The notes: generated by a model not told the origin, from the sequence alone. Counted from the stretch's first letter, positions 4,126 through 63,341 are shown. The stretch: DNA of 64,000 nucleotides from Candidatus Levyibacteriota bacterium (GCA_016186645.1 JACPLF010000003.1:4112-68111); one strand, 5' to 3'. Program-made: numbers and translations.

Positions 4126-4701
4126 ATGATTTTGGGGCCGAAAGATTTATTAAAATTAGTCAAAACAAAAAAGCTCGTTGAGGGTTTGTCAGAAAGAGAA
4201 CTGACCAATCCTGAAGGAGCTGGGTTTGATTTGCGCTTGGGGGAAGTTTATTCAATTTCCGGCAACGCTTTTTTGGGCGAAACGCATCGGAAAACCGCGG
4301 ACATAAAATTAGTTGCACAATATAGACATATAAAAAAAATAAGCGATCGCATTAAAAAATCAGATATTAAGACCCAAAAAATTGAGATTAAGCCTGGAGA
4401 TTTTTTCCTGGTCAAGACAATCGAATCGGTAAATATGCCCCAAAATTTAACCGCGAGCATAACTCCAAGGTCTACAACTTACCGCTCGGGTTTGTTTCTT
4501 CGCACGGGAAATGTGCAGCCCGGTTACTGCGGGGGATTGATTTTTGGTTTGAAAAACGAAGGACCAATAACAGTCGAAATCGAAATGGGCGCGAGATTTG
4601 TCCACATCCAGTTTTCGCAAGTCAAAGGCGGGGGAAACATGTACCGCGGCCAATGGCAAGGCGGCCGAGTAACCGCGAGAAAAAAGGAAAAACAGGTTTA
4701 G
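4126..4701 (+). CDS. dCTP deaminase/dUTPase-family paralog
   Basis: MILGPKDL...GFDLRLGEVY N-terminus and C-terminal beta-jellyroll motifs (PGYCGGL). Contains an in-frame copy of the AGCGATCGCAT element at 4342-4352. Confidence 0.7.
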   Translation: MILGPKDLLKLVKTKKLVEGLSERELTNPEGAGFDLRLGEVYSISGNAFLGETHRKTADIKLVAQYRHIKKISDRIKKSDIKTQKIEIKPGDFFLVKTIESVNMPQNLTASITPRSTTYRSGLFLRTGNVQPGYCGGLIFGLKNEGPITVEIEMGARFVHIQFSQVKGGGNMYRGQWQGGRVTARKKEKQV

Positions 4702-9995: not shown

Positions 9996-11522
9996 ATGAT
10001 AGGCACAAAGGAAGCAGTTTCTCGTACATTTCCAGAAACTCTAAGTGGAGAGCAAAACAGCTTCGTAGGTTTTATTGACCAAAATAGAGATCTTTTTGAG
10101 AGACATACTTCTTCGACTTATGAGTTAAGAGATGAACGAGATGGCTGGAGAAATTCTCCCACGATAAGTGAAGTGGCGCATAAGCACGCAGTTCTGTCAC
10201 TGCCTCTTAGGGGGGGGCATAATGCGTCTCCTCCAAACACCAGAGAATGGAAGCGGCATGAAGAGAGGATAAGAGATGCTATCGATAGGGAAATCTTTAG
10301 CAGCCCTGATGGAAAAAATACTTTGCCTGCAAAGCGACCGCCTCTTGATTCAATTTGGGCGAAAACAACTCCTTTACAAAGAGCTGAAATACAAGAATTA
10401 ATGGGCAGGACTGAAGAATTTCAAGCAGACTTCCTTGCGGCAATAGCGCCTTTAGCCGCAGAAGTTGAACAATTAAAAGAGGAATTATTTTCCAATTTCA
10501 AAAATTATCTGTTTTCAGATCCTGACGGCATTTTCGCCGTTAGAGATTTCCTAACAGATAAAAAATTCGCGTCTCAGAGAGAAACCATAAGACCTTTTCT
10601 TGCCAGTTTTGTTCAGAGTGAAGATAAGTTAGCAAAAGACGGCAAGAGAGGAATATTGGGCGAGACAGTTAAAAAGTGGGCAGATGAAATTTCGAAAAGA
10701 GTAACTCCAGTTCTTGTTGACGAATTTGTTGAGTCTATTAGAAATCCTAATGTTCTTGAATGGCTGGAATTTGCAGCAAATATGCCTATAAGCGTTCTGG
10801 GTACAACTGAGGAAAGGGATAAAGATTTGATAAGAGATAGCATTGTCAGTTTTCTTAAGAGCCGTCCGGATGTTTCTTTTTGGCCGCCAGAACTCAAAAA
10901 AGCATTATCCTCTTTTGCTTCATCTAAATATGCTACCGCGCGTTCTTCTGTAGAAAAGGGGTTAGAAGGGTTTAGAAGACCGTTGAGTTCAAAACCGGCA
11001 CCGCAGATCCATCTGGAACCAGAAAAGAAAATAGAAGGGGCGCCTGTTCAGGAAGATGCCAAAAAAGAACCAGATGATAAAAAAGGTGCATCAGAAAAGG
11101 CTGAAAAAAGAAAATATCCGATTGGGATATTGACAAAAGAAAGCGGATCGTCGCATGGGTTTGACATTAGGGTTTTAACAGAAGAGGAACTGAAAGATTT
11201 TTTACGAGAAAAGGCTGATTCTTTTGCTTCTTCGGATTTAAAAATGGCGGGAGATTTTAGAACTATAGTTGCCAGTCTGCGAGAGGATCCTTATGGGTTT
11301 GGCACAAAAAAACTCAACAACATGTCTGTTGGAATTGGTAAAACAAAAAGTTCTCCCATTCGAAGCATGGATCCTGGAAAAAGAATCGGCCTTCATCTTG
11401 AACATCCGGAATCGCAGAAAATTAGAATTGCTTATGTTATTTATGGAAGCGGAGACGATAAAGTAATTGTTATTGAAGGAATTTATAGTCATGATGATTA
11501 TGACAGTAAATTTGGAGCATAG
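9996..11522 (+). CDS. hypothetical 508-aa protein with a C-terminal RelE/ParE-like toxin fold
   Basis: C-terminal about 100 aa (LKDFLRE...DPYGFGTKKLNN...IRIAYVIYGSGDDKVIVIEGIYSHDDY) follows the RelE/ParE pattern. The N-terminal 400 aa are unrecognised. The gene is GC-richer than the flanking sequence. Confidence 0.5.
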   Translation: MIGTKEAVSRTFPETLSGEQNSFVGFIDQNRDLFERHTSSTYELRDERDGWRNSPTISEVAHKHAVLSLPLRGGHNASPPNTREWKRHEERIRDAIDREIFSSPDGKNTLPAKRPPLDSIWAKTTPLQRAEIQELMGRTEEFQADFLAAIAPLAAEVEQLKEELFSNFKNYLFSDPDGIFAVRDFLTDKKFASQRETIRPFLASFVQSEDKLAKDGKRGILGETVKKWADEISKRVTPVLVDEFVESIRNPNVLEWLEFAANMPISVLGTTEERDKDLIRDSIVSFLKSRPDVSFWPPELKKALSSFASSKYATARSSVEKGLEGFRRPLSSKPAPQIHLEPEKKIEGAPVQEDAKKEPDDKKGASEKAEKRKYPIGILTKESGSSHGFDIRVLTEEELKDFLREKADSFASSDLKMAGDFRTIVASLREDPYGFGTKKLNNMSVGIGKTKSSPIRSMDPGKRIGLHLEHPESQKIRIAYVIYGSGDDKVIVIEGIYSHDDYDSKFGA

Positions 11523-21762: not shown

Positions 21763-21809
21763 TTTTGATTAATTTGTCAAGGGGTGCAGTCTGCTGTATA
21801 CTTAAAAGC

Positions 21810-22091
21810 ATGAATCCCGTTAAAGATCGCTTTTATTATGTTTACATTTTACAAAGTTTGAAGAGCAACAAATGGTATACTGGCTACACAAATGAATTAC
21901 GCAAGCGTTTTAATCAACATCAAGAAAATAAATCTACATATACAAAAGGACGAGGACCTTTTAATCTTATATATTATGAAACATCGTTGAGAGAGGAGGA
22001 CGCTATAGCGAGAGAAAGATATCTTAAAAGCGGGATGGGCAAACGATATCTTAAAAATAGATTAAAACGCTCGCTATCTTTAACGGGATGA
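21810..22091 (+). CDS. GIY-YIG family nuclease (small, UPF0213-like)
   Basis: YYVYILQS...WYTGYTNELRKRFNQH. The TATACT -10 lies 7 nt before the ATG. Confidence 0.75.
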   Translation: MNPVKDRFYYVYILQSLKSNKWYTGYTNELRKRFNQHQENKSTYTKGRGPFNLIYYETSLREEDAIARERYLKSGMGKRYLKNRLKRSLSLTG

Positions 22092-23077
22092 AAATCGTTG
22101 TAACTCACAGTTCGCCGGACATGGATGCCATAACTTCTGTCTGGCTTATCAGAAAATTTTTACCAAATTGGAGCGATGCCCTAGTTAGGTTTGTACCAGC
22201 GGGAGAAAGGTTTACTTTTCGGAAAACTCAGAATGCTCAGAGCTCCAGCGTTTCTGACGGTCAGACTATCAGACAATCTGACTCTCCGAGTTCTTCAGAG
22301 TTTTCTGAAGTTGTCGAAAATATTGGCGAGGATGAAGTTATCCATGTTGATACTGGATTGGGACCTCTGGATCATCATCAGACTGCATCGGATGAAGTAT
22401 GCGGAGCAAGCCTGACGTTTGACTTCGTCAAACGAGTTCAAAATTCAAAATTCTCGCCTCGGGGCGAAGCGGGCAAAATTCAAAATTTGGAAAGCAAAAA
22501 GTGGAACGACAGAATGAAGGCAGTAGGGAGGATGGTGAAAGTTGTTGTTGATATAGATCATTTTAAGGAAGTTTTCCGCAAGGACCCTTTGGCTGACTAT
22601 CATGAATTTGACCTTGCAGGTATTTTGGATGGGCTCAAGCTCGAGCTTCCGGGTCAAGATGAATTATATGTTGCAGAAGTTAGCAAATCTTTGGATGCAA
22701 TTTTGCATGGGTTTGAAAATAGGATTTGGGCGGAAAAAGAAATCAGGGAAAAAGGGAAAAAATTTAAAACGCGCTTTGGCCGCGGAATTGGTTTAGAGAC
22801 AATAAATGATTCGGTTGTAAAATTGGCTCAAAAAATGGGATATGTAATTGCTGTGAGAAAAGATCCAAGAAAAGGGTACGTCCGAATAAAAGTGAGGCCG
22901 GATAGTAAAATTGATTTGACTTTAGTCTACGAGAAGTTTAGAAAAATCGACCCGGATGCCACGTGGTTTCTTCATGTTTCCAAAAAAATGCTTCTCAACG
23001 GTTCGGTAAAAAATCCCAAGATGAGGTCTACCAAGCTTTCTTTGAATGACATAATTAGAGTTCTAGAAAAGATATAA
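22088..23077 (+). CDS. DHH-family phosphoesterase (nanoRNase/NrnA-like)
   Basis: HSSPDMDAITS, DTGLGPLDHHQ. Overlaps the GIY-YIG stop. Carries in-frame repeat inserts at 22261-22300 and 22452-22469. Confidence 0.75.
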   Translation: MKIVVTHSSPDMDAITSVWLIRKFLPNWSDALVRFVPAGERFTFRKTQNAQSSSVSDGQTIRQSDSPSSSEFSEVVENIGEDEVIHVDTGLGPLDHHQTASDEVCGASLTFDFVKRVQNSKFSPRGEAGKIQNLESKKWNDRMKAVGRMVKVVVDIDHFKEVFRKDPLADYHEFDLAGILDGLKLELPGQDELYVAEVSKSLDAILHGFENRIWAEKEIREKGKKFKTRFGRGIGLETINDSVVKLAQKMGYVIAVRKDPRKGYVRIKVRPDSKIDLTLVYEKFRKIDPDATWFLHVSKKMLLNGSVKNPKMRSTKLSLNDIIRVLEKI

Positions 23078-34244: not shown

Positions 34245-37200
34245 ATGGTCTGTAGGATTTTCCCCATTGCAGACTATACCTTCTTGCACTACAGTTTAAT
34301 AGTGAGATTATTTGCTCGTAATCTTTTATTCATCATTTCTTTCATTTTCCTTTTGTTATTTCCCTCAAATGTAAGCGCGGCAGAATTGCAGCCGGGAAGC
34401 GTTTGGCAGTGGAATGATGCATCCGCCTCTGCAGTTACTCAAAAACAAGGTTTAAGCAATGTAGCTTCTGTTAGTATAGGTCGTGATCATAGTCTTGCTT
34501 TGGAAAGTGACGGTACTGTGTGGGCATGGGGAAATAACCAATACGGGCAGTTGGGTAATGGAGAGAGCGGAGGAAGCCTTGTTGATCCGGTTCAAGTAAA
34601 ACTTTTGGGAGGTGGTTATCTGACGGATGTTAAAGGTATTTCCGCAGGATACAAATGGAGCATTGCCATTAGAAATGATGGGACAGTTTGGGTGTGGGGC
34701 TACGATGGATATGGAGCAAGAGGAGCAGGAGTAGGAAATAATGACAGTGACAGCAAGCTTCTCGTAGCAACGCAGGTTAAAGGTCCAAGCAACTTTCTGC
34801 AAATTGTTGCAATAGCCGCAGGAGATAATCACAGCATTGCGCTAAAAGCCGACGGAAGTGTCTTTGCATGGGGATTAAATAATAATGGGCAAGTGGGTAT
34901 CGGCTGTTATTTATATAATTGTAGTCGAATCGATAGTCCAGTTAAAGTTCTCGACAATGCTATTGCAATTGCCGCAGGCGGACATCATACCCTTGCGGTG
35001 AAAGCAGATCAAACGGTTTGGGGATGGGGAAGAACAAGTGAAGGACAGTTGGGATCTATCACCGGTAGTTTTGGAGTTCAGGGGTCTCCTATCCAAATTC
35101 CAGGAATTTCCGGAATAAAAAATGTTTGGGCAAAAACAAACTGGAATGTCGCTTTGTCTAATAATGGAAGCCTATTCGGTTGGGGACATGGGAGTTATAC
35201 ATATTCTGGCGATAGAAATCCGAAACAAGTATCTGGTTTAGGCGAGGTAACGTTGGCGGCTGTTGGACAAACGATTTTTGCTCCAGTTGGTATTGCTGTA
35301 AAAGGCGATGGGACGTTATGGTGGTGGAATGCCGAAAATAATAGTAATCCAACACAGATTTCAACCCTTTCAAACATCGGCTCTGTTGCAGTCGGTTTGT
35401 TTACTCCTAGTCTTGCTTCGGTTTTCCTTCCAGCTCCAACCCCAACTCCGACACCAACACCTACTCCCAAAACTCCTTTAATCTTAATTCCCGGCATCGG
35501 AGGGTCAGAGTTGAAAGTTGTCGAGGAAACATATTGGTTAGAAAAAGATGATGGGCATGGAGGAAATTTTAATTATATTTATCCTACGGACGAAACAGTT
35601 TGGCTAAATGAAGACAAAGCAAAGGATTTTGGTGAAGATGACTATTTTGATGTTTTGAGAATGAAAAATGATGGTATAACTTCCGAAGCAAATATAGGGA
35701 TTACTGAAAACTTGCTAGGTAGAGCTTACCAGGGGACAATAGATTTTTTTATTTCCAACGGTTACGAATTAAATAAAAATTTTTTTGTTTTTCCTTATTA
35801 TTGGAGAAAAGATATTGCATTAACAGCATTACTTCTTAATGAAAAAATAAATGAAATAAAAACACAAACGGGGAGTCAAAAAGTGGATATTGTTGCTCAT
35901 AGTATGGGAGGACTGGTGGCTAGAAATTATATATCCGATGTGACAAAAGCTCAAAATGTCAGAAAATTATTTACTTTAGGAACCCCGCATCTGGGGTCAG
36001 TGGATTCGTTAAAGAATTTGAGATACGGCGCTTGCCTAACTCCTTTGCCTATATCATTAGGCCCATTGTGCCTAGGAATAGCAGATACAGAAACAAATGA
36101 TGTTGTTCAGAATATGGTTAGTGTATTTCAATTAGTACCAAGTCAAGCTTATTTTAATTTTTATTCCGGAGAAGATAATCAGCACCCATTTCCCTATAGA
36201 ACAGAATCAGGAACTTTGAACTATATGCAAATTAAAAATTTATTAACCGGTCTTAATTTTAACACGCCTCTTTTTAATCCCTCTGAAGCTTTTCATACTC
36301 TGGATAATTCGTTATTCAGTACGAATGGCGTTGATGTAACGTTAATTGCAGGTTCCGGCCAAAAAACTTTGGGGCAAATTGTTGAAGAAAAAAGGACTTC
36401 CTTGTTGGGAATTCCATATATTCATAAAGACACAATTAATATCAATGGCGATGGGACAGTTTCGCTTTTTAGCGCTTCTCTTAACGACTCCGATAATGGT
36501 ATTTCTTTTTTGGGTAATGCAAAAGTTTTTTATACGAAGCAGGATCATGGTAATCTGGTTTCTTCGGGGTCAGCATTAAATCTCATAAAAAATATTTTAA
36601 ACGATGATAATCAGTTGCCTGTTGGAGTTTCTGCCCAACCCTATTTTTTCAGTGGAAGTCAAATTTCCGTGCATTCTCCTGTTAACATTCATGTTTATGA
36701 TTCATTGGGAAACCATACTGGCCCAACAAGCAATGGAGATTTTGAAGCGAATATTCCAGGAAGTTCTTACGATACTTTGGATGATGCTAAATTTATTTGG
36801 CTTCCGGATAACGGACAGTATGATATTAAATTTGAAGCAACTGATCAGGGTAGTTTTGATTTCAAAATCAGAAAATATGAAGATGATGAAAATACGGAAA
36901 CTATACTCTATAAAGAAATTCCATTAGCCAATAATACAAAAGCGGAAACTTCATTTGATACTCAATCTTCAGAAGTTCCCATTATTAGAATTGATGAGGA
37001 TGGAAATGGCAATTTTGACTTTAATATAGAGCACTTCAGTATTTTGGAAGGAGATGCAAATTATGATTATACTCCTCCAACTATCTCCTCAGCTGTTAAT
37101 CCAAAATCTATCTGGCCGCCAAACAATAAGATGGTTAATGTAAATATTACAGGCGCTATAACTGATGAGAATCCATATTTAGTAACAATCTTGGTTGATG

Positions 37201-37400
37201 ATGAATATGACTTAATTGAACCTTCAATAACTATCCAGAATCAGACAAATATTAATGAAACTATAAAGTTGGAAGCTTCAAGAAAAGGTGGCGATAAAGA
37301 TGGGAGGAAATATACAATAAAAATATTGGCTACGGATCTGGCTGGAAATACTTCGCTTTCTATTGCAGAAGTAATTGTTCCGCATGACCAGAGGAAATAA
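34245..37400 (+). CDS. 1051-aa secreted multidomain protein: RCC1-like repeats, PT linker, alpha/beta-hydrolase lipase domain (GHSMGG), C-terminal Ig-like region
   Basis: Signal peptide. GRDHSLALESDGTVWAWGNNQYGQLG repeats x6-7. PTPTPTPTPTP at about 35437-35470. VAHSMGGLVARNY. C-terminal KYTIKILATDLAGNTS. Confidence 0.75.
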   Translation: MVCRIFPIADYTFLHYSLIVRLFARNLLFIISFIFLLLFPSNVSAAELQPGSVWQWNDASASAVTQKQGLSNVASVSIGRDHSLALESDGTVWAWGNNQYGQLGNGESGGSLVDPVQVKLLGGGYLTDVKGISAGYKWSIAIRNDGTVWVWGYDGYGARGAGVGNNDSDSKLLVATQVKGPSNFLQIVAIAAGDNHSIALKADGSVFAWGLNNNGQVGIGCYLYNCSRIDSPVKVLDNAIAIAAGGHHTLAVKADQTVWGWGRTSEGQLGSITGSFGVQGSPIQIPGISGIKNVWAKTNWNVALSNNGSLFGWGHGSYTYSGDRNPKQVSGLGEVTLAAVGQTIFAPVGIAVKGDGTLWWWNAENNSNPTQISTLSNIGSVAVGLFTPSLASVFLPAPTPTPTPTPTPKTPLILIPGIGGSELKVVEETYWLEKDDGHGGNFNYIYPTDETVWLNEDKAKDFGEDDYFDVLRMKNDGITSEANIGITENLLGRAYQGTIDFFISNGYELNKNFFVFPYYWRKDIALTALLLNEKINEIKTQTGSQKVDIVAHSMGGLVARNYISDVTKAQNVRKLFTLGTPHLGSVDSLKNLRYGACLTPLPISLGPLCLGIADTETNDVVQNMVSVFQLVPSQAYFNFYSGEDNQHPFPYRTESGTLNYMQIKNLLTGLNFNTPLFNPSEAFHTLDNSLFSTNGVDVTLIAGSGQKTLGQIVEEKRTSLLGIPYIHKDTININGDGTVSLFSASLNDSDNGISFLGNAKVFYTKQDHGNLVSSGSALNLIKNILNDDNQLPVGVSAQPYFFSGSQISVHSPVNIHVYDSLGNHTGPTSNGDFEANIPGSSYDTLDDAKFIWLPDNGQYDIKFEATDQGSFDFKIRKYEDDENTETILYKEIPLANNTKAETSFDTQSSEVPIIRIDEDGNGNFDFNIEHFSILEGDANYDYTPPTISSAVNPKSIWPPNNKMVNVNITGAITDENPYLVTILVDDEYDLIEPSITIQNQTNINETIKLEASRKGGDKDGRKYTIKILATDLAGNTSLSIAEVIVPHDQRK

Positions 37401-42626: not shown

Positions 42627-45278
42627 ATGACACCTGAAGCACAACCTGCAATTTTAAATGGTGAGGCAATACATCAAGAGTTTCCTCTGACTGTTTTCCT
42701 GGAAGACAAAAGAGCAAAAAGCGTAGATATTGTAGGCGGAAAAGCAGCAAGCCTTGCAGAGCTTGGTACGATCCCCGGTATAAAAGTCCCCGAAGCTTTT
42801 GTCATAACGACTTCTCTGTCAGCTGAGATTCTAGTACAAAACCCCGACATAAAAGCAGGAATTGAGGGTTTGGATGAAATGTCTGCTAGGTGGTTAAAAG
42901 CCACATTAACTGAAGATAACGAAGGAGCAGAAGCTTTGGAAAAGCAGATAACAGCTGCGGGCGACGCGTTGAAAAAAAAGATGGGAATTGCAAAAATCCC
43001 GGATTCAGCCCAACGCCAAATTGAAGAAGAATACGATCAATTATGCAAAAGGGTTGGGAAAGAAAATGTAGCTGTTGCAGTCCGCAGTTCAGGCATATCT
43101 GAAGATAGTAGAGATAATAGCTTTGCCGGACAATATGATTCTTTTCTTCATCAACAGGGGAAAGAAGAAGTTTTAGATGCTATTAAAAAATGCTTAGCTT
43201 CTCAATTTACAGATAGAGCAATCGAATATAGAAATGGAGGAAGACTTAAAATCTCCCAGGAGGAATTGGCGGACAATAAAGATATTGATACTGCAATTAA
43301 AGCAAGCGAAAGACTTTCTCACGCGGAGTCAAAATTAGCAGTTATTGTTCAAGAAATGGTAAATGCATCTAGCGCAGGAGTAGGTTTTTCAGTTGACTCA
43401 AAAAGCGGCGCTCCATTTATACATATTGATATAAATTATGGTTTGGGCGAATCGGTCGTAAGCGGGAGTGTAAGTCCGGATTCTTACGACATTGATCCCG
43501 AGACAGGTGCAATAGTTGGCCGTAATCTAGGAGGTAAAGAAGTAAGAACATCATATGTGCGGAGAGGAACAGAAGAGGTTAAAGTTGCGGAGCAAGACAG
43601 AAATAGATTTGTTCTTACAGACGAACAAGCTAAAAAATTAGCGGGCAAAATTGCAGCCATAAGAGAGGTTTATGGCAGAGAAGTTGATACTGAATTCGCA
43701 ATAGATTCCCAAGGAGAAATTTATTTTCTTCAAGCAAGACCCGAAACTATTGCATCAAACAAAGACGATAGGATAGTGGAAATGCGAAGAAAAATCGTTC
43801 CCGAAGAAGTCGCTGAAAAGGAAGAACCGATTTTTAAAGGAGGTATAACTGGATGTCCGGGAGTTGCAACGGGAATTGTTGTTGTTGCTAATACCATGGA
43901 TGAGGCAAAAATGGTAATTGAAGCACGTGAAAATAGAAATAGGAAGATTATTTTGGTGACTGAAAGAACAGATCCTGATTGGGTTTCTCTGATGAGAGAC
44001 CTTGGAGGTATTGTTACTAGAGTTGGAGGAGCAACATGTCATGCGGCAATTGTAAGCCGAGAACTTGAACTTCCATGCATCGTAGGTGCAGGCGACACAA
44101 CTGAACTTGCTAAACATAAAGGTCAGTTAATTACGTTAGACGCGAACGAACGGAGAATTTATAAAGGTGAGCTTTCTCTTAAGGAAGTAGGGGAAGATAT
44201 TGACGTTGCCGAGCTTTTAGGAAGTCCAACTAAAACTCCGATAGGACTTATTATTTCCAATCCGGACATGGCAAGAAAAATGCACGCGTTATCAGAACTT
44301 GGGCCAAATTTTATGATTTCACTTTTGCGCATAGAATTTCTGTTGGAGGATATTGGCGTACATGTCAACGCATTGGTTGATTTTGACAAAGGAAAAATTT
44401 CACCAGATTCTGATCTATTTAAAAGAATTGCAGAAAAGATTGCCGGATATGGCAGCGGAGAAGAATATTTCAAAACAAAACTTACAGAAGGCATAGCAGC
44501 TTTTGCCGCGTTGTTTCCCAATAGTCCTATAACTTTAAGAACTACTGATTTTAAGACCAATGAATATGGGAGTTTAATTGGCGGAAATGAATATGAGTCT
44601 GAAGAAGCCAATCCTATGATGGGATGGAGAGGTTTGGTCCGATCCTTGTCTCCTGAAAATAGAGAAGCATTTAAATGGGAATTGAAGGCAATTAAGAAAG
44701 CTCGTGAAATGGGGTATAAAAATATTAAATTAATGTTCCCGGTAGTCCGCGATCCCAAAGAATTAACAGGAGATCCGGAACTTGATGCAATAGGTTTTAA
44801 GGGAGCTTTTGAAATTATGCAAGAGGTTGGGATGGGCAAAGGCGTAGATGGCTTGAAAGTTGGAATAATGGTAGAAGTTCCAACTAACGCCGTAAGAATA
44901 CGTGACTTTATTGATGCAGGTATTGATTTTGTTTCTTTTGGAACAAATGACCTTACTCAGTTTACTTTGGCAGCAGACAGAGATAATGAGAAAATTCAAA
45001 GTCTTTCTTGGTACGGAGAAACAAATCCCGCTGTAGTTAGTTTGGTCAAGGAAGTAATAAGGGTATGTAAAGAGCGCGGGATAGAAACAGGAATTTGCGG
45101 CCAAGCTCCATCCAACAAACCTGAATTTGCCAAAATGCTAATTGAAGAGGGCATAGGATCAATCGGAGTAATGCCCGATATGTTCCTGCCAACACATAGA
45201 CTTACAGGGGAAGTGGAGCAGAGTCGGAAAGTTCAGGCCACCTCAACCCCCACGAGAGTTGAGTTTATGAACCGCTGA
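42627..45278 (+). CDS. ppsA: PEP-utilising enzyme: phosphoenolpyruvate synthase / pyruvate phosphate dikinase-like
   Basis: ATP-grasp N-terminus (VGGKAASLAEL), phospho-His GGATCHAAIVSRELELPCIVG, C-terminal GTNDLTQFTLAADRDN. Confidence 0.6.
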   Translation: MTPEAQPAILNGEAIHQEFPLTVFLEDKRAKSVDIVGGKAASLAELGTIPGIKVPEAFVITTSLSAEILVQNPDIKAGIEGLDEMSARWLKATLTEDNEGAEALEKQITAAGDALKKKMGIAKIPDSAQRQIEEEYDQLCKRVGKENVAVAVRSSGISEDSRDNSFAGQYDSFLHQQGKEEVLDAIKKCLASQFTDRAIEYRNGGRLKISQEELADNKDIDTAIKASERLSHAESKLAVIVQEMVNASSAGVGFSVDSKSGAPFIHIDINYGLGESVVSGSVSPDSYDIDPETGAIVGRNLGGKEVRTSYVRRGTEEVKVAEQDRNRFVLTDEQAKKLAGKIAAIREVYGREVDTEFAIDSQGEIYFLQARPETIASNKDDRIVEMRRKIVPEEVAEKEEPIFKGGITGCPGVATGIVVVANTMDEAKMVIEARENRNRKIILVTERTDPDWVSLMRDLGGIVTRVGGATCHAAIVSRELELPCIVGAGDTTELAKHKGQLITLDANERRIYKGELSLKEVGEDIDVAELLGSPTKTPIGLIISNPDMARKMHALSELGPNFMISLLRIEFLLEDIGVHVNALVDFDKGKISPDSDLFKRIAEKIAGYGSGEEYFKTKLTEGIAAFAALFPNSPITLRTTDFKTNEYGSLIGGNEYESEEANPMMGWRGLVRSLSPENREAFKWELKAIKKAREMGYKNIKLMFPVVRDPKELTGDPELDAIGFKGAFEIMQEVGMGKGVDGLKVGIMVEVPTNAVRIRDFIDAGIDFVSFGTNDLTQFTLAADRDNEKIQSLSWYGETNPAVVSLVKEVIRVCKERGIETGICGQAPSNKPEFAKMLIEEGIGSIGVMPDMFLPTHRLTGEVEQSRKVQATSTPTRVEFMNR

Positions 45279-45557
45279 TTTTTGGCAAAACCTTTAGACT
45301 TTTTGAAGCAGGGAGTTTTGGAGGAGTTGGTCTGTTTTTGTTTGCACCTGAGTTAGAATCTCAACCATCTTTTCAAAAATCTCAAAACTCGGTCTCATCT
45401 TTGCTGTTGACCTTAAATATTTTCTGTCTTCTTCGCTCATATTAAAAACATTTTATATTATATTTTCTCGTCCGGCTTGACACGATTCGGACATTTCCAA
45501 GACAGCTTTTATTTTTTAATTATTTTTGGTATACTTTCTCTAGAAGTAGGTGAGAAA

Positions 45558-45941
45558 ATGAAAAAACAGCGGACAATAGAATGGATTTTACGGCTTGCTG
45601 TTGCCGGCGAATTTATTGGACATGGAGTTTTTGCTATTCAAGGAAAAAAGCAATGGATCGGCTGGTTTTCAAATTTTGGAATTTCTGACGTAGGAATCGC
45701 GACACAACTTTTGTTTTTGATTGGCGTAATGGATGTATTTCTTGCAATTCTTATTTTGATAAAGCCAATTCGCGGCGCACTCCTCTGGATGACATTTTGG
45801 GGGTTTTGGACCGCTCTCATAAGACCACTGGTGGGTGAGCCAATATGGGATTTTATTGAGAGATGGGCAAACTGGGGAGCGCCATTGGCACTGCTCTATA
45901 TTGTAGGATTTCCAAAGTCTATAAAGGACTTGATAAGCTAA
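45558..45941 (+). CDS. small integral membrane protein (DoxX-like)
   Basis: SD AGGTGAG; three or four TM helices. Confidence 0.5.
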   Translation: MKKQRTIEWILRLAVAGEFIGHGVFAIQGKKQWIGWFSNFGISDVGIATQLLFLIGVMDVFLAILILIKPIRGALLWMTFWGFWTALIRPLVGEPIWDFIERWANWGAPLALLYIVGFPKSIKDLIS

Positions 45942-46038
45942 GATGAAAATTTACACTTGCCCGATACTCCCATAAATCCAAATTGCTTTTGAGATAAAAT
46001 TCCCCAACTCCACATTTGAATTTGATAGAATAAGGTAA

Positions 46039-46761
46039 ATGGGGATTTTATTTTTTGCATCAGCTTTTATTTCAGAAATAATAGGGACAGTAGCGGGATT
46101 TGGATCTTCAACTGTTTTTTTACCTTTAGCGCTTTTGTTTTTTGATTTCAAAACCGCATTGATTCTGGTTGCTTTATTTCATGTTTTTGGAAATTTTGGA
46201 AGAATCAGTTTTTTTAGACATGGATTAGGTAAACGCACGCTCCTAATTTTTGGAATTCCCAGTGTGGTTCTTACTTTTCTAGGCGCATTATTAGTTAACT
46301 ATACCCCTCAAGATTTCTTAAAAGGCATTCTTGGAGTTTTTCTTGCAATTTATTCGATATTGTTTTTGTACAAAGATGATTTGAAAATAAAACAATCTCT
46401 TTCAAGCTCCATAATTGGAGGGGGACTATCGGGTTTTTTGGCTGGTCTTATAGGAACAGGGGGAGCCTTAAGAGGAGCATTTTTAACAGCTTTTGGATTA
46501 TCTAAAGAAAAATATATTGCAACAGCCGCGGCAATAGCGCTGGCAGTGGATTTTACAAGAATTCCTGTATATTTTGCACAGGGATTTTTGAACAGGGAAT
46601 TTTATGCGTACATTCCATTCTTGTTTGCAGTTGCGCTTGCAGGATCATTTACGGGGAAACAGATAATTAAAAAAGTTCCTCAAAAAAAGTTCAAGAAGAT
46701 AGTTCTAGTCGCAATTTTAATAGTCGGAATTAAATTCGTATACGATTTTCTGTCCCACTGA
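46039..46761 (+). CDS. TauE/SafE (DUF81) family anion exporter
   Basis: Duplicated 4-TM repeats with GAGGGxL motifs. Preceded by AAATTCCCCAAC and a TGATAGAAT -10. Confidence 0.75.
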   Translation: MGILFFASAFISEIIGTVAGFGSSTVFLPLALLFFDFKTALILVALFHVFGNFGRISFFRHGLGKRTLLIFGIPSVVLTFLGALLVNYTPQDFLKGILGVFLAIYSILFLYKDDLKIKQSLSSSIIGGGLSGFLAGLIGTGGALRGAFLTAFGLSKEKYIATAAAIALAVDFTRIPVYFAQGFLNREFYAYIPFLFAVALAGSFTGKQIIKKVPQKKFKKIVLVAILIVGIKFVYDFLSH

Positions 46762-46793
46762 AGGCGGTGAAATTCCCCAACCCATCCAGATTT

Positions 46794-46802
46794 TGCTATA
46801 AT
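46794..46802 (+). promoter_or_regulatory. extended -10 TGCTATAAT, 6 nt upstream of the ATG at 46809 (leaderless NYN transcript)
   Basis: The same architecture occurs at 2699-2707(-), 9979-9987, 39552-39560, 47452-47460, 48927-48935 and 41385-41393. Confidence 0.55.
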
Positions 46803-46808
46803 TTTATT

Positions 46809-47309
46809 ATGAGTTTTAAAACTTACGCTTTTATTGATGCTTCAAATATAATTTACGGAACCCGTGATGAAGGATGGAAAGTAGATTTTAAAAAAATGAT
46901 AAAGTACCTTAAGGAACGTTTCAAATGCCGAAAAGTTTACTATTTTGCAGGTTTTGAGAAAAATAATATTAAACAAAGGAATTTTTATAAAATTTTGGAA
47001 AAGTTAGGATACGAATTGATACTCAAAAAAGTTAAAATTTATCGTCAGCCGGATGGGGGAACAACTAGAAAAGCGAATTGTGATGTTGACTTGACTTTTT
47101 ACGCCATGAGAGACATTGACCTGTTTGATAGAGCGATATTCTTTTCCGGGGATGGGGATTTTGAAATACTTCTTAAGCACTTCATTAAAATGAAGAAAGA
47201 TGTACGCGTATTTGCCAATGCAAAAAGAACAGCACGGGGAATAAAAAAGCTAAAAGGAATTCAGTTTAATGACCTTGGCGTTTTAAAGGAGACAATCAAA
47301 AGGAAATAA
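46809..47309 (+). CDS. NYN-domain (LabA-like) protein
   Basis: YAFIDASNI...CDVDLTFYAMRD...FFSGDGDFEIL. AAATTCCCCAAC at 46770-46781 and TGCTATAAT at 46794-46802. Confidence 0.7.
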   Translation: MSFKTYAFIDASNIIYGTRDEGWKVDFKKMIKYLKERFKCRKVYYFAGFEKNNIKQRNFYKILEKLGYELILKKVKIYRQPDGGTTRKANCDVDLTFYAMRDIDLFDRAIFFSGDGDFEILLKHFIKMKKDVRVFANAKRTARGIKKLKGIQFNDLGVLKETIKRK

Positions 47310-47316
47310 AAAAAGG

Positions 47317-47346
47317 CGGAGATTACGAACATCGCCGCCTTACGTT
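47317..47346 (+). terminator. probable intrinsic terminator after the NYN gene
   Basis: aaggcgg...ccgcctt stem followed by ACGTTTT. Confidence 0.4.
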
Positions 47347-47466
47347 TTATAAACCTATATTAACATAGTAGTACTTAAAAATCAATAGGTGAAAACTTCC
47401 AGGTGAGAGATAAAATTCCCAACCCAATCCCATCTCTTAAATCCAAAATTCTGCTATAATCTTTTT

Positions 47467-48195
47467 ATGAATTTGTCTGTGAGTTGGAAAAGTAATTACA
47501 AGCTACCCCTGAGTTTTATAGTATTTTTTGTGCTGATGTTTTTCTTCATAGGAGAGCAGCTTGTGGCATTACCAATTTATTTAATTGGTCCGGGAATTGG
47601 TGGGGAAGGTCCCGATAAGCTTCATATACTGGATTTGGCTCTACGTGACGGGTTGCTGCATCGTCCGTTTGCCTACCTTATTATTGGCACAGTAATTTGG
47701 ATTCTGTATAGAATATTTACGTGGCCACTGGCTTGGTTTATAGGTGCGGCTCTTTGGATATTGGAACAACAGACATTAACCCCGCTTGATCAGCGCCCGA
47801 CACTTATTAATGCAATAGTCTTTACATCTACTTTCTGGGTTCTCCTTACATTAGCTCCATATTTTGTTTTTAGGTGGGTGGATAAAAAATGGGAAAGAGT
47901 AGGCAGGAAAAATATCATCTTAATTATGTTTTTAATAAATCTTTTGCTTTTTGGATTTTTTGCATATCAAATTTATGTTCTGCATAACTCATATCGTGGT
48001 TTCCATAAAGATAAAGGCCAGCAAGGCTCATCAGATTCTGTGCGAGTGCTGCCTCCAAATACCTGTCCTGACCGTTTGATTACAAAAAAAGGCAAACAAA
48101 CAGTTATCTATTGGGATGAAAGGACTCTTCCGGTATCTGCCGATGAACAAAAATGGGTGGAGCAAAATTGCCCGGGAGCGATAGAAAGTAATTAA
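47467..48195 (+). CDS. hypothetical polytopic membrane protein with a Cys-containing C-terminal domain
   Basis: AAAATTCCCAACCC at 47412-47425. TGCTATAAT at 47452-47460, 6 nt before the ATG. Confidence 0.5.
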   Translation: MNLSVSWKSNYKLPLSFIVFFVLMFFFIGEQLVALPIYLIGPGIGGEGPDKLHILDLALRDGLLHRPFAYLIIGTVIWILYRIFTWPLAWFIGAALWILEQQTLTPLDQRPTLINAIVFTSTFWVLLTLAPYFVFRWVDKKWERVGRKNIILIMFLINLLLFGFFAYQIYVLHNSYRGFHKDKGQQGSSDSVRVLPPNTCPDRLITKKGKQTVIYWDERTLPVSADEQKWVEQNCPGAIESN

Positions 48196-48198
48196 TTC

Positions 48199-48207
48199 TG
48201 CTATAAT
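48199..48207 (+). promoter_or_regulatory. orphan TGCTATAAT promoter copy with no + strand ORF downstream; would read antisense into the PIN toxin gene
   Basis: ctgctataatcttct is identical to the ychF promoter core at 48927-48941. Confidence 0.35.
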
Positions 48208-48211
48208 CTTC

Positions 48212-48607
48212 TCACAACAGTTTCAAAAAGTTTTTTGGGGAGATGATTTTTGTTTTTTTATAATTTCCAAGTTTCAATACCAGTTTGTCTCCGCTTATTA
48301 AATAATCTGCTGTGGATTCCTCTGCCAGCTCCAAAAGAAAATTGTCCTGGGGATCTTTGCATATGGAAATCTTCTTTTTGGGAATAAATTTTTCGGTATT
48401 GATATCTAATGCTTCTTCAATGATTTTCAACGATTGATTTGATAAGAAAAATTTATTTTTTAGTTTGCTGATAATCTCTGTTTTCAACTCCGGTGATAGG
48501 CAGAATATGTATTTTTTATTTATCCATGCTTCAATTATTTTCCGGGGATTTCCGCCAAATAAAAAACCCGAAATAAATACATTCGTATCTACGACAACTT
48601 TATGCAT
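48212..48607 (-). CDS. PIN-domain protein (toxin of a Phd/PIN pair)
   Basis: VVVDTNVFISG...LISGDKLVL. Confidence 0.75.
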   Translation of the reverse strand: MHKVVVDTNVFISGFLFGGNPRKIIEAWINKKYIFCLSPELKTEIISKLKNKFFLSNQSLKIIEEALDINTEKFIPKKKISICKDPQDNFLLELAEESTADYLISGDKLVLKLGNYKKTKIISPKNFLKLL

Positions 48608-48863
48608 TTTTTATGATCGAGTAGGCATCCTTTTCAAAGCGGGGAGTACGTAGTGATTTTTTTCTAAGATATTGTTTAAATTTTTTCTCTCCTTCACGGA
48701 AAATTTCTTTGAATTTGAGTTGAAAAAGCTGGTCGTAGGGATAGACAACTACAGAAGGATTGCTGTCTTGTACTATAACAACAGGTTCTTTTGTAGCTTT
48801 TATTTGCTCAATAAGCTTTGCCAGGCTATTCCTCGCATCGGTAATACTTATGATCTGTAACAT
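48600..48863 (-). CDS. Phd/YefM-family antitoxin
   Basis: ISITDARNSLAKLIEQIKATKEPVVIV. Minus-strand TTGACA-N17-TATAAT promoter (48896-48901 and 48873-48878) 9 nt before this ATG. Confidence 0.7.
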   Translation of the reverse strand: MLQIISITDARNSLAKLIEQIKATKEPVVIVQDSNPSVVVYPYDQLFQLKFKEIFREGEKKFKQYLRKKSLRTPRFEKDAYSIIKNA

Positions 48864-48943
48864 ACATAGTACATTATATGGTACATTATGCGTTTTGTCA
48901 AGCGGCATTTTTAAATTCCAAAATTTTGCTATAATCTTCTGAT

Positions 48944-50059
48944 ATGAATTTGAGCGTTGGAATTATAGGGTTACCTAACGTTGGGAAAAGTACTTTGTTT
49001 AATGCGCTGCTGAAAAAACAGCAAGCATTTGTTGCGAATTATCCTTTTGCAACAATTGAGCCAAATGTTGGGATAGTGCCGGTGCCGGATGAACGTCTAA
49101 ATAAATTAGCGGAAATTACAAAAATTGAGGCAAAAATGTCAGAACTTCCGCCCATTAAACCCGCGACAGTGAATTTTGTAGATATTGCAGGTTTGGTAAA
49201 AGGCGCTAGTGAAGGCGCGGGGTTGGGAAATAAATTTTTGTCCCACATCAGGGAGGTTTCGATAATCGCTCATGTAGTCCGTGCGTTTGAGGATCCTAAT
49301 ATTATTCGGGAAGGAAGTGTTGGTCCAAAGGAAGATTATGAAGCGATCGAAACGGAGCTCATTCTGGCGGATCTACAAACTATCGAAGCCGCGCAAAGCC
49401 GCGTTAAAAGATTTGCAAGAGAAACGGAAAAATCAGCAATTGAAAAATTGTTTAAAGGTCTTAATGAAGGAAAACCGGCAAGAGAAATTATTTTAACACC
49501 GGAGGAGCAAGAATTTGCCAAAACATTTTTTCTTCTTTCTGGTAAACTCGAATTAATTGTATTAAACGTCGAGGAAAAAGATTATAACGAAAAATCAATC
49601 GAAGCGATTACTCAAAAATATAAGGAGATGCTGAAACAAGTTCAGCATGACAACGAAGAAAATATAGTTGTAATTTGCGCAAAGATCGAGTCGGACCTAT
49701 CGGAATTGTCAGAGGCAGAGCAGAAAGAATATCTGCAAGGATTGGGATTAAAAACTTCGGGGCTTGAAAGACTTATTCAAAAAGCATATCAGACATTGGG
49801 ATTAATTTCGTTTTTAACAGCAGGTGAAAAAGAAGTGCGTGCTTGGACCATTGAAAAAGGCATTAAAGCAGTTGATGCGGCCGGCGTAATTCACACGGAT
49901 TTTACAAAAAACTTTATAAAAGCAGAAGTTGTTGCATGCGAAGACTTTATAGGTTTAGGGGGTTGGAAAAAATCAAGAGAGTTAGGAAAAGCGTGCCTTG
50001 AAGGCCGGGATTACATCATGCAAGACGGAGATGTGGTTGAATTTAAAATTGGATCTTAA
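48944..50059 (+). CDS. ychF: ribosome-binding ATPase YchF
   Basis: GLPNVGKSTLFNAL..., TGS domain at the C-terminus. TGCTATAAT at 48927-48935. Confidence 0.9.
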   Translation: MNLSVGIIGLPNVGKSTLFNALLKKQQAFVANYPFATIEPNVGIVPVPDERLNKLAEITKIEAKMSELPPIKPATVNFVDIAGLVKGASEGAGLGNKFLSHIREVSIIAHVVRAFEDPNIIREGSVGPKEDYEAIETELILADLQTIEAAQSRVKRFARETEKSAIEKLFKGLNEGKPAREIILTPEEQEFAKTFFLLSGKLELIVLNVEEKDYNEKSIEAITQKYKEMLKQVQHDNEENIVVICAKIESDLSELSEAEQKEYLQGLGLKTSGLERLIQKAYQTLGLISFLTAGEKEVRAWTIEKGIKAVDAAGVIHTDFTKNFIKAEVVACEDFIGLGGWKKSRELGKACLEGRDYIMQDGDVVEFKIGS

Positions 50060-50673: not shown

Positions 50674-51306
50674 ATGGACAATGACAAAATAGACCAATTA
50701 GCAAAAATATTAGTTCGTAAAATAGATAAAGAAGTTTTTGAGAGAAAATATGCGCCCGTTAAAACAATCCTGAAGCTCGTTGGCGCCGGAGCGTTTTTAA
50801 TGGCTGCTATGATTATGCCAGGTTTGCCTTTGGCGCTCAAGCCATTTATGGATGAAAAAAGAAAAGAAGAGTATGAAGTCTGGAAGAGATTTAATATACC
50901 TTATCTAAAAAGAACGCTATTGAGATTGGAAAAGCAAAAGTTAGTTGAAATAGCAGATGAAGACAGTAGGCAAGTTGTTAAGATTACCAATCAAGGAAAA
51001 CAAAAAATTATTAAGATGGCACTGGATGAACTTACTGTTGAAAAACCGAAAATATGGGACGGAAAATGGAGACTTGTTAGTTTTGATTTACCTGAAACTA
51101 AGGCTCAACAAAGAAAAAGATTCGTAGAGTATTTGAGCGTGTGGGGGTTTTACCCCCTACATAAAAGTGTTTATTTACATGCTTATCCTTGTTTTAAGCA
51201 AGTAGAGTTTCTGAGAGAATATATGAATGTTGGAGAGTACGTCAGGAATTTTACCGTATCTAAAATAGAAAACGATAAATTATTCAAAGATTTTTTTGGA
51301 GTCTAG
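50674..51306 (+). CDS. hypothetical 210-aa protein with a Cas2/VapD-like (PaaX-like) segment; flanked by about 30-bp direct repeats
   Basis: WRLVSFDLPETKAQQRKRFVEYLSVWGFYPLHKSVY follows the Cas2 beta-alpha-beta pattern. Repeats at 50637-50668 and 51310-51342 share AATTACCCGATCGG. Confidence 0.4.
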   Translation: MDNDKIDQLAKILVRKIDKEVFERKYAPVKTILKLVGAGAFLMAAMIMPGLPLALKPFMDEKRKEEYEVWKRFNIPYLKRTLLRLEKQKLVEIADEDSRQVVKITNQGKQKIIKMALDELTVEKPKIWDGKWRLVSFDLPETKAQQRKRFVEYLSVWGFYPLHKSVYLHAYPCFKQVEFLREYMNVGEYVRNFTVSKIENDKLFKDFFGV

Positions 51307-62222: not shown

Positions 62223-63341
62223 CTAAAGTTCGATAAGATTCTTTGGGGAATGGGTGAGAAGACGAGGGCCTTTCTTTTCTAAGACTACCAAATCCTCAAT
62301 CCTAACACCGCCAAGGTTTGGAATGTAAATTCCCGGTTCAATTGAAAAAACCATCCCAACTTTTAAAATATCTTTGGATTTTGGAGAGAGACGGGGCGCT
62401 TCATGAACATCGATCCCGATTCCATGACCGAGAGAATGGGGAATAGTTTTGTATCCTTTGGATATGATGTGTTCTCGGGCAATTTTATCAATTTTAGATG
62501 CCTTAATGCCTTTATCCAATTGCTTTATTGTTAAATTGCTAAATTGTTGAATTGCTTTTTTTTGCGATTCCAAAACTGTTTGGTACATCCTTTTTTGTTC
62601 GGCTGTTGGTTTTCCGAAGAAAATTGTGCGGGTCATGTCAGAACAATAATTATTTAATTTAACCCCGAAATCCAACAAAACAAACTGACCACTAGACGCT
62701 AGACGCTGATTGCTGGTTTGGTGGTGGGGGATGGCGGAGTTTTTTCCAAACGCAACAATGGGCTTAAAAGAAATATCGCCGCCTTGTTTTTTTATGAAAA
62801 ATTCTATTTCATTCGCTATTTCTTTTTCCGAGACTCCTAGTTTAATCTTCTTTAAGATATAATCAAAAGTTTTGTCGGAAAGCACGCACGCTTTTTCTAT
62901 TTTTGAAACTTCTTCTTTATTCTTTATTGCACGTAAGTTATTTAAACTAAAATGATTTAAATCATTAAAGCGAGAAGATAATTTTTTATGTTCCAAAAAG
63001 GTAAGATTATTTCCCTCAAAGCCCATGCGTTTGACGCGATATTTTTTGATAAGCTGTTTAAGCGCTTTTTCAAAAGATAGTTTTGAAGAAATCTCAATCG
63101 ATTTAAAATTATGTACCAATTTTTTTATGGCTTGAGAATATCTCCCGTCAGTCAAAATATATTGTTGATTTTTGGCCCGCTTCGCCGCGAGGCGAGTAAT
63201 AAATAAATATGCTTCGCGTTCTTCTTTGGAAAACCCTGAATAATTTGTCAGATATACTATATTGGAAAAAGATGAAATTAAAACTGCATCCAATTTCTTT
63301 TTTGCAAATTCCTGTTTAAGTTTTGCAAGAGGAGTACTCAT
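62223..63341 (-). CDS. pepP: Xaa-Pro aminopeptidase (M24B)
   Basis: Pita-bread HSLGHGIGIDVHE and metal ligands. Contains in-frame AAATTGTT repeats (62513-62545) and a GC-rich CGCTTCGCCGCGAGGCGAG insert (about 63176-63200). Confidence 0.85.
   Translation of the reverse strand: MSTPLAKLKQEFAKKKLDAVLISSFSNIVYLTNYSGFSKEEREAYLFITRLAAKRAKNQQYILTDGRYSQAIKKLVHNFKSIEISSKLSFEKALKQLIKKYRVKRMGFEGNNLTFLEHKKLSSRFNDLNHFSLNNLRAIKNKEEVSKIEKACVLSDKTFDYILKKIKLGVSEKEIANEIEFFIKKQGGDISFKPIVAFGKNSAIPHHQTSNQRLASSGQFVLLDFGVKLNNYCSDMTRTIFFGKPTAEQKRMYQTVLESQKKAIQQFSNLTIKQLDKGIKASKIDKIAREHIISKGYKTIPHSLGHGIGIDVHEAPRLSPKSKDILKVGMVFSIEPGIYIPNLGGVRIEDLVVLEKKGPRLLTHSPKNLIEL

Follow-up and report, generated by a model that had tools for sequence, protein, structure and literature searches.

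What does it mean that three consecutive genes of unrelated function share a C-rich sequence a short way upstream of their promoters, and that the last of the three begins with the same codons as the nearby GTPase gene ychF? The question is raised by the 45.9-49.0 kb part of a stretch of DNA from Candidatus Levyibacteriota bacterium (GCA_016186645.1 JACPLF010000003.1:4112-68111), a member of the Candidate Phyla Radiation (CPR); the whole stretch analysed, 64 kb of the source genome, is called the window below. An earlier note, made from the sequence alone, had taken the shared element to mark a possible regulon. Here the window is compared with loci from related genomes and metagenomes (designated by L-numbers), sampled as ~20-kb stretches around ychF or island genes. 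We conclude that the C-rich element, a 16-mer with the sequence TAAAATTCCCCAACCC, and the promoter duplications found with it are probably reusable promoter units in a hypervariable island beside ychF, the scars of repeated insertion, and not a classical regulon. The genes concerned are the following.

46039 (start), plus strand: TauE gene (Pfam)
46809-47309, plus strand: gene for an NYN-domain protein (Pfam)
47467-48195, plus strand: gene for a membrane protein with no Pfam family; its first five codons (MNLSV) are ychF-derived
48212-48863, minus strand: PIN_3/Phd-YefM pair (Pfam)
48944-50059, plus strand: ychF, encoding a YchF/OLA1-type GTPase; conserved anchor bordering the variable island

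The membrane-protein gene (the 47467 gene) and ychF are headed by two copies of a unit of ~51-53 nt that comprises promoter and first codons.

47431-47481, plus strand: duplicated unit A, AAATCCAAAATT followed by TGCTATAAT, 6 nt and ATGAATTTGTCTGTG; heads the 47467 gene
48906-48958, plus strand: duplicated unit B, AAATTCCAAAATT followed by TGCTATAAT, 8 nt and ATGAATTTGAGCGTT; now serves ychF

Since a shared consensus makes some likeness between any two leaderless promoters expected, the similarity was measured. Units A and B match at 29 of 36 upstream and 11 of 15 coding positions, and pairs among 14 leaderless promoters match at 14.9 ± 2.8 and 6.4 ± 1.7 positions, respectively. The 47467/ychF pair is the highest in both measures, ~5 standard deviations (SD) over the other promoter pairs, and an orphan promoter core (see below) comes next with 23 and 22 of 36. 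A repeat finder recovers the pair as 47431-47468 and 48906-48943, 1475 bp apart with 82% identity over 38 nt. The paralogy of the two units is genuine. Both genes do start ATGAATTTG (MNLSV) behind TGCTATAAT cores, as the earlier note had observed, and the only other ATGAATTTG in the window, at 22602, is without promoter context. That note had also placed a shorter version of the C-rich motif before ychF; an element is present there (48913-48925, off by 1 from the position first given), but this AAATTCCAAAATT aligns with AAATCCAAAATT (47439-47450) inside the duplicated unit and not with the C-rich motif.

Homologs point to ychF as the source of the shared codons. MNLSVGIVGLPN is the conserved YchF N-terminus, just before the P-loop, in many orthologs, and the L001 ychF start, ATGAATTTGTCTGTC, is identical to the start of the 47467 gene at 14 of 15 positions. 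The 47467 protein belongs to a family with 69 homologs across Microgenomates that is conserved only from W(K/R)SNYKL onward. The N-termini of the 22 homologs that were read are variable (MPIHWKS..., MPFNWKS..., MSFWKS...) and none is MNLSV, so the 47467 gene captured the old ychF promoter plus five codons; the homolog in L108 has a different promoter. By these comparisons the 47467 gene carries a displaced ychF promoter and five ychF codons, with MNLSV as the ancestral YchF N-terminus. The proposed promoter-plus-start duplication is thus borne out by the match counts, by the conservation of MNLSVGIVGLPN in YchF and by similar relics upstream of ychF in relatives. At 9440-9490 in L198, the locus with the closest NYN relative (89% identity), NYN starts MNLKTY behind TTCTGCTATAATCTTTTTATGAATCTG; a ychF-type promoter with its first three codons seems to have been captured there as well.

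The promoters of the two genes farther upstream are of the same kind.

46023-46041, plus strand: promoter P1, TGATAGAAT, 7 nt, TauE ATG; predicted leaderless start
46794-46811, plus strand: promoter P2, TGCTATAAT, 6 nt, NYN ATG

All four promoters of the region have TGnTAnAAT 6-8 nt before the ATG (gaps of 7, 6, 6, and 8 nt), the extended -10 being TGATAGAAT at 46023 and TGCTATAAT at 46794, 47452, and 48927; the orphan core has TGCTATAAT as well, at 48199. This spacing predicts leaderless mRNAs, a style that appears to be common genome-wide: of 50 gene starts in the window, 15 have TAnA[AT]T 5-10 nt ahead of the ATG (10 of them with the TGn extension), vs 3.6% of all ATG triplets, and only 4 have a Shine-Dalgarno-like site. 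The TTCTGYTATAATCTTTTYATG pattern recurs at unrelated genes in several related genomes. A fixed -35 element was considered and rejected, the spacing to the -10 ranging from 12 to >50 nt; canonical TTGACA-17-TATAAT promoters also occur elsewhere in the window. Extended -10 promoters and leaderless mRNAs are known in Actinobacteria, in Deinococcus and in the 'group C' genomes of GeneMarkS-2, and the promoters here resemble the Actinobacteria/Deinococcus type in having TGn-TAnAAT 6-8 nt from the start, no Shine-Dalgarno sequence and often no -35. A full-text literature search found no paper on leaderless extended -10 promoters in Levybacteria.

With promoters this uniform, the likenesses might be no more than AT-rich DNA with strong consensus promoters yields by chance. 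The 64 kb contain eight exact copies of TGCTATAAT (four of them within 46794-48935); at ≤1 mismatch it is not enriched in the window (29 observed vs 21.9 expected), a sigma-70 pattern scan finds no surplus of promoter-like sites in the region, and the TTCTGYTATAATCTTTT consensus recurs at unrelated genes in several genomes. Chance of this sort is nevertheless extremely improbable, given that the similarity of units A and B is so far above that of other promoter pairs and reaches into coding sequence, and that the 16-mer described below lies outside the -10 consensus, keeps all 16 positions in genomes with differing YchF, and is strongly biased in position and strand.

Relics of the ychF 5' end recur in other genomes. 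They were sought with the pattern "-10, 5-9 nt, ATGAAYYTN" and consist of a ychF-like promoter and start broken off after 2-10 codons, mostly 0.7-7.4 kb upstream of the live ychF. Such relics or duplicates are present in at least eight other genomes (the residues given are those that precede the break).

L100: relic MNLSVGI; live ychF at 4320; 1.8-kb insert of small genes
L004: relic MNLSVGI; live ychF at 10001
L008: relic MNLSVGM; live ychF at 7896
L084: relic with its ATG at 304; live ychF at 1026
L104: two relics, MNLS and MNLSVGIVGL; live ychF at 7923
L198: two relics, on either side of NYN; ychF outside the fetched stretch
L007: one relic; live ychF at 10001
L096: apparent longer ychF 5' duplicate, ~0.9 kb upstream of the ychF mapped by tblastn

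The live ychF of L100 has a new N-terminus, MELRVGIVG, and a different promoter, and in L004 a perfect 21-nt direct repeat (21/21), TATGAATTTATCTGTAGGGAT, flanks a 2.06-kb insert, the copies being 2063 bp apart. Two types of insert recur. Type A inserts (L198, L100, and L004) have a homologous left end of ~150 nt from a common junction, type B inserts (GGTaCGAACACAAC...) are common to L008, L198, and L007, and within each type the junction nucleotide is the same. The ~150-nt left ends, conserved although the three genomes are only distantly related (L198 10060-10230; L100 2500-2640; L004 7958-8100; e.g., ATCACCCAGAGAGACGAGTTTGGRAGRATA) hold no open reading frame (ORF) and give no significant Rfam match; they could be an element arm or a small RNA.

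An integrase in or near the inserts was considered as the route of entry and rejected, since none was found in the window or in the inserts examined: there is none in those of L004, L008, L100, and L104, and the window insert consists of the membrane-protein gene and the PIN/Phd pair only. The L198 insert (>10 kb), which holds an HTH_17 excisionase-like gene and a restriction-modification pair, is the only one with an excisionase-like gene. A small GIY-YIG (URI-type) gene in the window (21765-22091, plus strand) overlaps the start codon of the next gene (22088) by ATGA. Its homolog in L104 (7628-7926), with the same 3' end, fits precisely into the interval that separates a ychF-type promoter (TCCTGCTATAATCTTCTAATATGAAT) from ychF. 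The gene has the look of a selfish one that inserts at leaderless start codons.

The second component of the proposed promoter units is the C-rich sequence itself, of which the window has three copies.

45991-46010, plus strand: 16-mer copy 1 with GAGA prefix, GAGATAAAATTCCCCAACTC, 53 nt past the stop codon of the DoxX-like gene
46768-46783, plus strand: 16-mer copy 2, TGAAATTCCCCAACCC, 6 nt past the TauE stop codon
47407-47425, plus strand: 16-mer copy 3, GAGATAAAATTCCC-AACCC, one C short

The 12-mer first reported, AAATTCCCCAAC, is the core of the 16-mer, which in related genomes often has GA in front. It occurs exactly at 45997-46008 and 46770-46781, with no other exact copy in the 64 kb; copy 3 reads AAATTCCC-AACCC at 47413-47425. 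The earlier note was therefore right about the presence of the motif before the TauE, NYN and membrane-protein genes (the motif is conserved in related genomes), and its position for copy 2 is exact; that for copy 1 was off by 7 (46004-46015 had been given). Copies 1 and 3 are alike over a longer stretch than first reported, GAGATAAAATTCCC being identical at 45991-46004 and 47407-47420. From the start of the 16-mer to the start of the -10 hexamer there are 31, 29, and 44 nt for copies 1, 2, and 3. The remaining ~62 kb of the window, with at least 10 other leaderless promoters, has no copy; this island-bound distribution also disposes of a DNA-uptake sequence.

The 16-mer is conserved clade-wide and is sited at the 5' edges of cassettes. 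Twenty-six non-redundant copies in ~10 related genomes give 25.7 bits over the 16 nt and ~4 bits for each flank, and nine copies, from five genomes, agree at all 16 positions though YchF differs by 20-30% and the adjoining spacers are unalignable. In the eight genomes that showed both motif and ychF, every one of the 22 copies is on the ychF strand and no more than 10 kb upstream of the gene, a zone that makes up 45% of the sequence examined (naive P ~6e-15 for position and strand together). A co-oriented gene or ychF relic follows the motif in 20 of the 22, and a -10-like hexamer begins 21-67 nt from the first base of the motif in 20 (21-48 nt in 16), with no helical phasing. Where the same cassette occurs in two genomes, as do the beta-helix gene (L001 and L091) and NYN (the window, L091, and L001), homology starts at the motif, to the left of which the sequences are unrelated. 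The end of the beta-helix cassette is 4 nt past its stop codon, and at several copies of the motif the preceding cassette finishes in ...TCGA or ...GAGA. Three genomes have the motif in front of NYN and at least five have it in front of ychF or a relic, with unalignable spacers between. Genes behind it encode TauE, NYN, membrane, beta-helix/NosD-like and DUF5674 proteins, a 1286-aa DUF5667 protein, an acyltransferase, a serine hydrolase, MazE, TspO, a Gp49/HigB-like protein and YchF; the L208 copy adjoins a toxin-antitoxin cassette in another Levybacteria genome. Genome-specific variants exist, CCCCAAAC in L001 and the GAGA prefix in L104.

In a tree of YchF (best matches in public genomes and metagenomes are Levybacteria-like, with 77-82% identity) the motif-bearing genomes are widely spread and include L104, which branches deeply; the loci without the motif (L081-L084, L090, L092, and L093) fall into one nested clade, in which L092 and L093 keep degenerate versions of the motif at ychF. 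An NYN gene is present in six of six motif-bearing loci with enough upstream sequence and in none of eight motif-less loci; NYN is also found without the motif (L198, L201, L212, and L214), and we claim no causal link. NYN directly upstream of ychF is widespread (L001, L097, and L201, plus relics in L104 and L198), so that NYN followed by ychF is probably the ancestral arrangement.

We favor a protein-binding promoter element as the function of the 16-mer, because a -10 follows it regularly, its place upstream of NYN and ychF is kept, and genome-specific variants exist; it is most likely the protein-binding element of a portable promoter. The same data could be read otherwise, namely that the 16-mer is a recombination or attachment signal of integron-like or Xer-module-like accretion at ychF, with the recombinase encoded elsewhere and the link to promoters secondary. 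The motif is information-rich, asymmetric and sharp-edged, stands exactly where shared-cassette homology starts and often after the cassette ends named above, has all 22 copies co-oriented and restricted to the variable island in eight genomes, and in two places lies between convergent genes, where no promoter is needed. The island moreover holds toxin-antitoxin pairs and Fic and GIY-YIG genes, which are typical cargo of cassette arrays. Yet no recombinase is encoded in the window or among the scanned island ORFs of related loci, the mappable breakpoints are in ychF codons 2-10 and not in the motif, the latest window duplication excludes the motif, and most copies have a -10 hexamer at short range. 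Nor is there an attC- or dif-like inverted repeat, conservation being limited to 16-18 nt and the flanks being unconserved (no dedicated inverted-repeat search or DNA fold was made). The 16-mer was found on no CPR-like viral contig; an attP of a phage or plasmid was rejected on the same ground, since the 37 viral-contig matches are unrelated, higher-GC phage sequences without CPR-like promoter context and are thus taken as chance. A chromosomal dif/terminus site was likewise rejected, as GC skew is uniformly positive across the window and the 16-mer is not dif-like. A recombination signal is therefore an unlikely reading, if one to be taken seriously. Its bolder form, in which TAAAATTCCCCAACCC would be the junction signal of an undescribed CPR cassette-accretion system that stacks co-oriented cassettes at the ychF promoter by means of a recombinase or nuclease (e.g., NYN) encoded elsewhere, is a shade more doubtful; each event would then recycle a leaderless promoter, so that newcomer and ychF both stay expressed.

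A true regulon, in which a transcription factor or alternative sigma factor encoded nearby would use the motif as its operator or activator site and co-regulate TauE, NYN and the membrane protein to a common physiological end, has in its favor the three consecutive promoters, the conservation of the motif upstream of NYN in three genomes, variants (those of L001 and L104) that could reflect co-evolution with a factor, and a gene for a PaaX-like regulator 600 nt past ychF. The downstream genes, however, are functionally unrelated and differ between genomes, the distance to the -10 varies (24-67 nt start to start), no copy stands at the window's other leaderless promoters, and the motif, unlike most operators, is neither palindromic nor repeated. 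The search for a factor encoded nearby, which the earlier note had suggested, turned up no sigma factor (RpoD-like genes occur in some relatives only, downstream of ychF), and the PaaX-like gene is absent from the other motif-bearing loci. The regulon reading is thus unsupported and we consider it improbable; co-regulation by some factor is possible. If the modules share ancestry, any shared regulation would be a by-product of that ancestry and not of shared gene function.

A further possibility is that the 16-mer belongs to the gene before it, as a 3'-end signal (a C-rich Rho-loading or protein-roadblock site) that blocks read-through. The upstream gene is co-oriented in 20 of the 22 copies and in 12 of those the motif begins 6-20 nt past the stop codon, the two copies between convergent genes would be accommodated, and the 16-mer is C-rich and G-free, as Rho-loading sites are. 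Known Rho-loading sites are far longer than 16 nt, however, two copies have a divergent upstream gene (L098 5046 and L100 2438), the motif is absent after other window genes, and NYN already has a terminator-like structure ~60 nt before the motif.

47311-47350, plus strand: GC-rich hairpin then T-run, terminator-like, after NYN (seen in the sequence)

A simple scan does not flag this hairpin; L104 and L198, in which NYN is followed by a ychF 5' relic, have it unchanged. We regard a 3'-end signal as very improbable.

Other repeated sequences occur near the motif or near promoters. A second recurrent word, AAATCCAAAA/TTTTGGATTT, is found beside the C-rich motif in the window (45968-45987, 46014-46023, and 47439-47450) and in L001 (2441-2458 and 9275-9310), at some places in inverted pairs; the inverted pair of L001 is perfect over 10 bp with a 14-nt loop, and that at P1 of the window matches at 9 of 10 with 30 nt between. 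An operator half-site is one possibility for this word. In the window (~62230-62260), L090 (~20586) and L093 (~19995), on the minus strand in each, a promoter is closely preceded by a conserved ggccccgcctcctcacccATTCCCCAAa; this sequence has ATTCCCCAA in common with the motif, its left half is different and G+C-rich, and it has no Rfam or tRNA match. The source genome has several promoter-region repeat families besides the C-rich motif, among them the intergenic low-complexity families aattagaaattagaataattag (upstream of 3339, 4126, and 24705), caaagattcaaaatcaaagacatc (upstream of 20988 on the minus strand, 21765, 27629, and 52597) and ttgttaaattgtt (upstream of 13003 and 23172).

Returning to reusable promoter units as the preferred explanation, we envisage the 45.9-49.0 kb region as the ychF-proximal end of an accessory-gene island made of single-gene units, each of which would have a promoter module composed of TAAAATTCCCCAACCC, a variable spacer of 12-35 nt, TGnTAnAAT, 6-8 nt and the ATG. 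Gene insertion at the ychF promoter and 5' end would have left the repeats as scars. The incoming DNA would carry, or join to, a replacement promoter plus first codons for ychF (48906-48958), and the resident promoter with the first five ychF codons (47431-47481) would be displaced upstream, where in the source genome the displaced start would have been joined in frame to the membrane-protein gene that came in. Between that gene and ychF lies the PIN/Phd cassette, which has a promoter of its own and the orphan core at its PIN-proximal edge. The 16-mer would help or control promoters that lack a -35, or insulate them from the upstream gene.

Several points weigh against this explanation. The latest duplication, that of units A and B, excludes the C-rich 16-mer, so the spread of the motif needs a separate or older process, and the variable distance from motif to -10 argues against direct contact with RNA polymerase. 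The window junction (after codon 5) is unique so far, unlike the type A and B junctions, and its in-frame fusion may be due to a later deletion rather than to the insertion itself. No recombinase or integrase gene was found among the window genes at 34-58 kb or the island ORFs scanned in related loci. Sampling of the 16-mer was biased toward ychF neighborhoods, and copies also occur in the sampled parts of L208 and L210, which do not include ychF; the two copies between convergent genes (L100 292 and 1349) would give a promoter without a gene to serve. Leaderless transcription, and the activity of every promoter discussed here, are predictions from the sequence.

The PIN/Phd cassette has promoter-like sequences at both ends.

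48212-48607, minus strand: PIN_3 toxin gene (PF13470, 6.9e-20)
48600-48863, minus strand: Phd/YefM antitoxin gene (PF02604, 5.6e-10)
48873-48901, minus strand: cassette promoter, TTGACA-17 nt-TATAAT (12/12), 9 nt from the antitoxin ATG
48194-48212, plus strand: orphan core AATTCTGCTATAATCTTCT, no ORF; antisense into the PIN gene

The two genes overlap at 48600-48607 with the antitoxin first, and the pair qualifies as a type II toxin-antitoxin system. Proteins 100% identical to the PIN and 47467 products are on record from a Candidatus Levybacteria metagenome-assembled genome, and SRR12113420 and SRR12113430 contain identical PIN/ychF contigs. The orphan TGCTATAAT (48199-48207), which the earlier note had described as lacking an ORF and pointing antisense into the PIN gene, is confirmed as such: its -10 ends 4 nt before the minus-strand PIN stop codon. 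Homologous cassettes (PIN 78-80% identical) located elsewhere in the genomes of L091 and L103 show AAATTCTGCTATAAT at the corresponding site, the -10 again ending 4 nt before the PIN stop codon; in L091, as in the window, the next gene on the antitoxin side is headed by a further core. Conservation is confined to close relatives, the PIN-end core being absent from three more distant cassettes (70-76% identity; L208, L210, and L212). That L091 and L103 keep the core at the same distance from the PIN stop codon weakens the idea that the orphan core is a plain relic of the ychF promoter. It may be a lineage-specific antisense promoter firing at the toxin stop codon or, alternatively, a mark left by a cassette that lands inside consensus promoters and duplicates them.

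The wider surroundings fit a conserved gene bordering a variable island. In a gene-order map of the related loci the stretch upstream of ychF is hypervariable and a conserved core of rpsF, ssb, rpsR and genes for an S41 protease and an HtrA-like protease lies downstream. Other genes of the window mentioned above or lying near the region are listed here.

42627: PEP synthase-like gene (Pfam)
45477: gene for a weak DoxX-like membrane protein (Pfam)
50674-51306, plus strand: gene for a PaaX-like protein (PaaX_M domain, 2.2e-16), ~600 nt past ychF

The PaaX-like gene is the sole regulator-like gene near the region and has no counterpart in related loci. In L083 (two copies) and L091, inserted genes for RpoD-like sigma factors of ~480-570 aa separate ychF from rpsF-ssb-rpsR; the window has no such insertion downstream of ychF. 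Rfam gives no match in 45200-49200 at E ≤ 1 and none window-wide at gathering score, and there are no tRNAs in the window, so a known RNA element was rejected as an explanation. Elsewhere in the window a 1051-aa protein (34245-37400, plus strand) combines RCC1-repeat (beta-propeller) and lipase/LCAT-like alpha/beta-hydrolase domains, a pairing unusual for a small CPR genome.

CPR bacteria, whose genomes are tiny and poor in regulators, have no genetics, and little is understood of how they gain new genes and express them. The data point to one route of gene gain, a hot spot at the ychF start that takes foreign genes: as a leaderless promoter and start codon take only ~50 bp, an incoming gene can seize them and a copy can rescue the essential neighbor. 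The 16-mer, extended -10 and ATG together make a compact candidate promoter for expression work in Patescibacteria, and the module could serve as a marker for variable islands in metagenome-assembled genomes. If the 16-mer were a recombination signal, it would belong to a new cassette system, integron-like but working without integron parts. For annotation, short "genes" starting MNLSV upstream of ychF are to be viewed as relics, and island N-termini can be chimeric.

Among known systems, near-identical upstream regions before non-homologous genes, within and across related genomes, recall the putative mobile promoters and promoter propagation in prokaryotes that Matus-Garcia, Nijveen and van Passel are said to have described in 2012; the ychF copies differ in being confined to one island, co-oriented with the anchor gene and inclusive of start codons (leaderless), and their modules carry a separate 16-nt upstream element. 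Integron arrays, too, have small, mostly co-oriented accessory cassettes beside a fixed anchor, a short conserved signal at each junction and reverse-oriented toxin-antitoxin cassettes with their own promoter. Unlike integrons, the islands (among the genes at 34-58 kb of the window and in related loci) have no IntI-like gene, the signal is an asymmetric 16-nt motif where attC is an imperfect palindrome of 60-140 nt, and each unit has its own -10 near the ATG, whereas integron cassettes are promoterless and use a common promoter.

The gene ychF has been recorded independently as an attachment locus of mobile elements, as a documented integration site of pipolins with large serine recombinases in Actinobacteria, in a paper whose text has neither promoter/start duplication nor the 16-mer (PMC11551731). 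Pipolins carry the piPolB polymerase and a recombinase, and nothing such was seen in the ychF islands here.

The closest analogy would seem to be with the SXT/R391 integrative conjugative elements, which, as Hochhut and Waldor are said to have found in 1999, insert into the 5' end of prfC. The 1.5-kb insert of the window differs in having no integrase, excisionase or conjugation genes; the ychF inserts are small and cargo-only, their target is ychF and their hosts are CPR bacteria, and the displaced promoter and start in the window appear to have been recruited in frame by the incoming gene. The two cases are alike in that insertion is in the first codons of a gene for a conserved translation-associated GTPase, that the insert would supply a new promoter and N-terminal codons (MELRVGIVG in L100; unit B in the window) and so keep the gene functional, and that the old promoter and 5' end are left as a direct repeat (82% over 38 nt in the window; 21 of 21 in L004).

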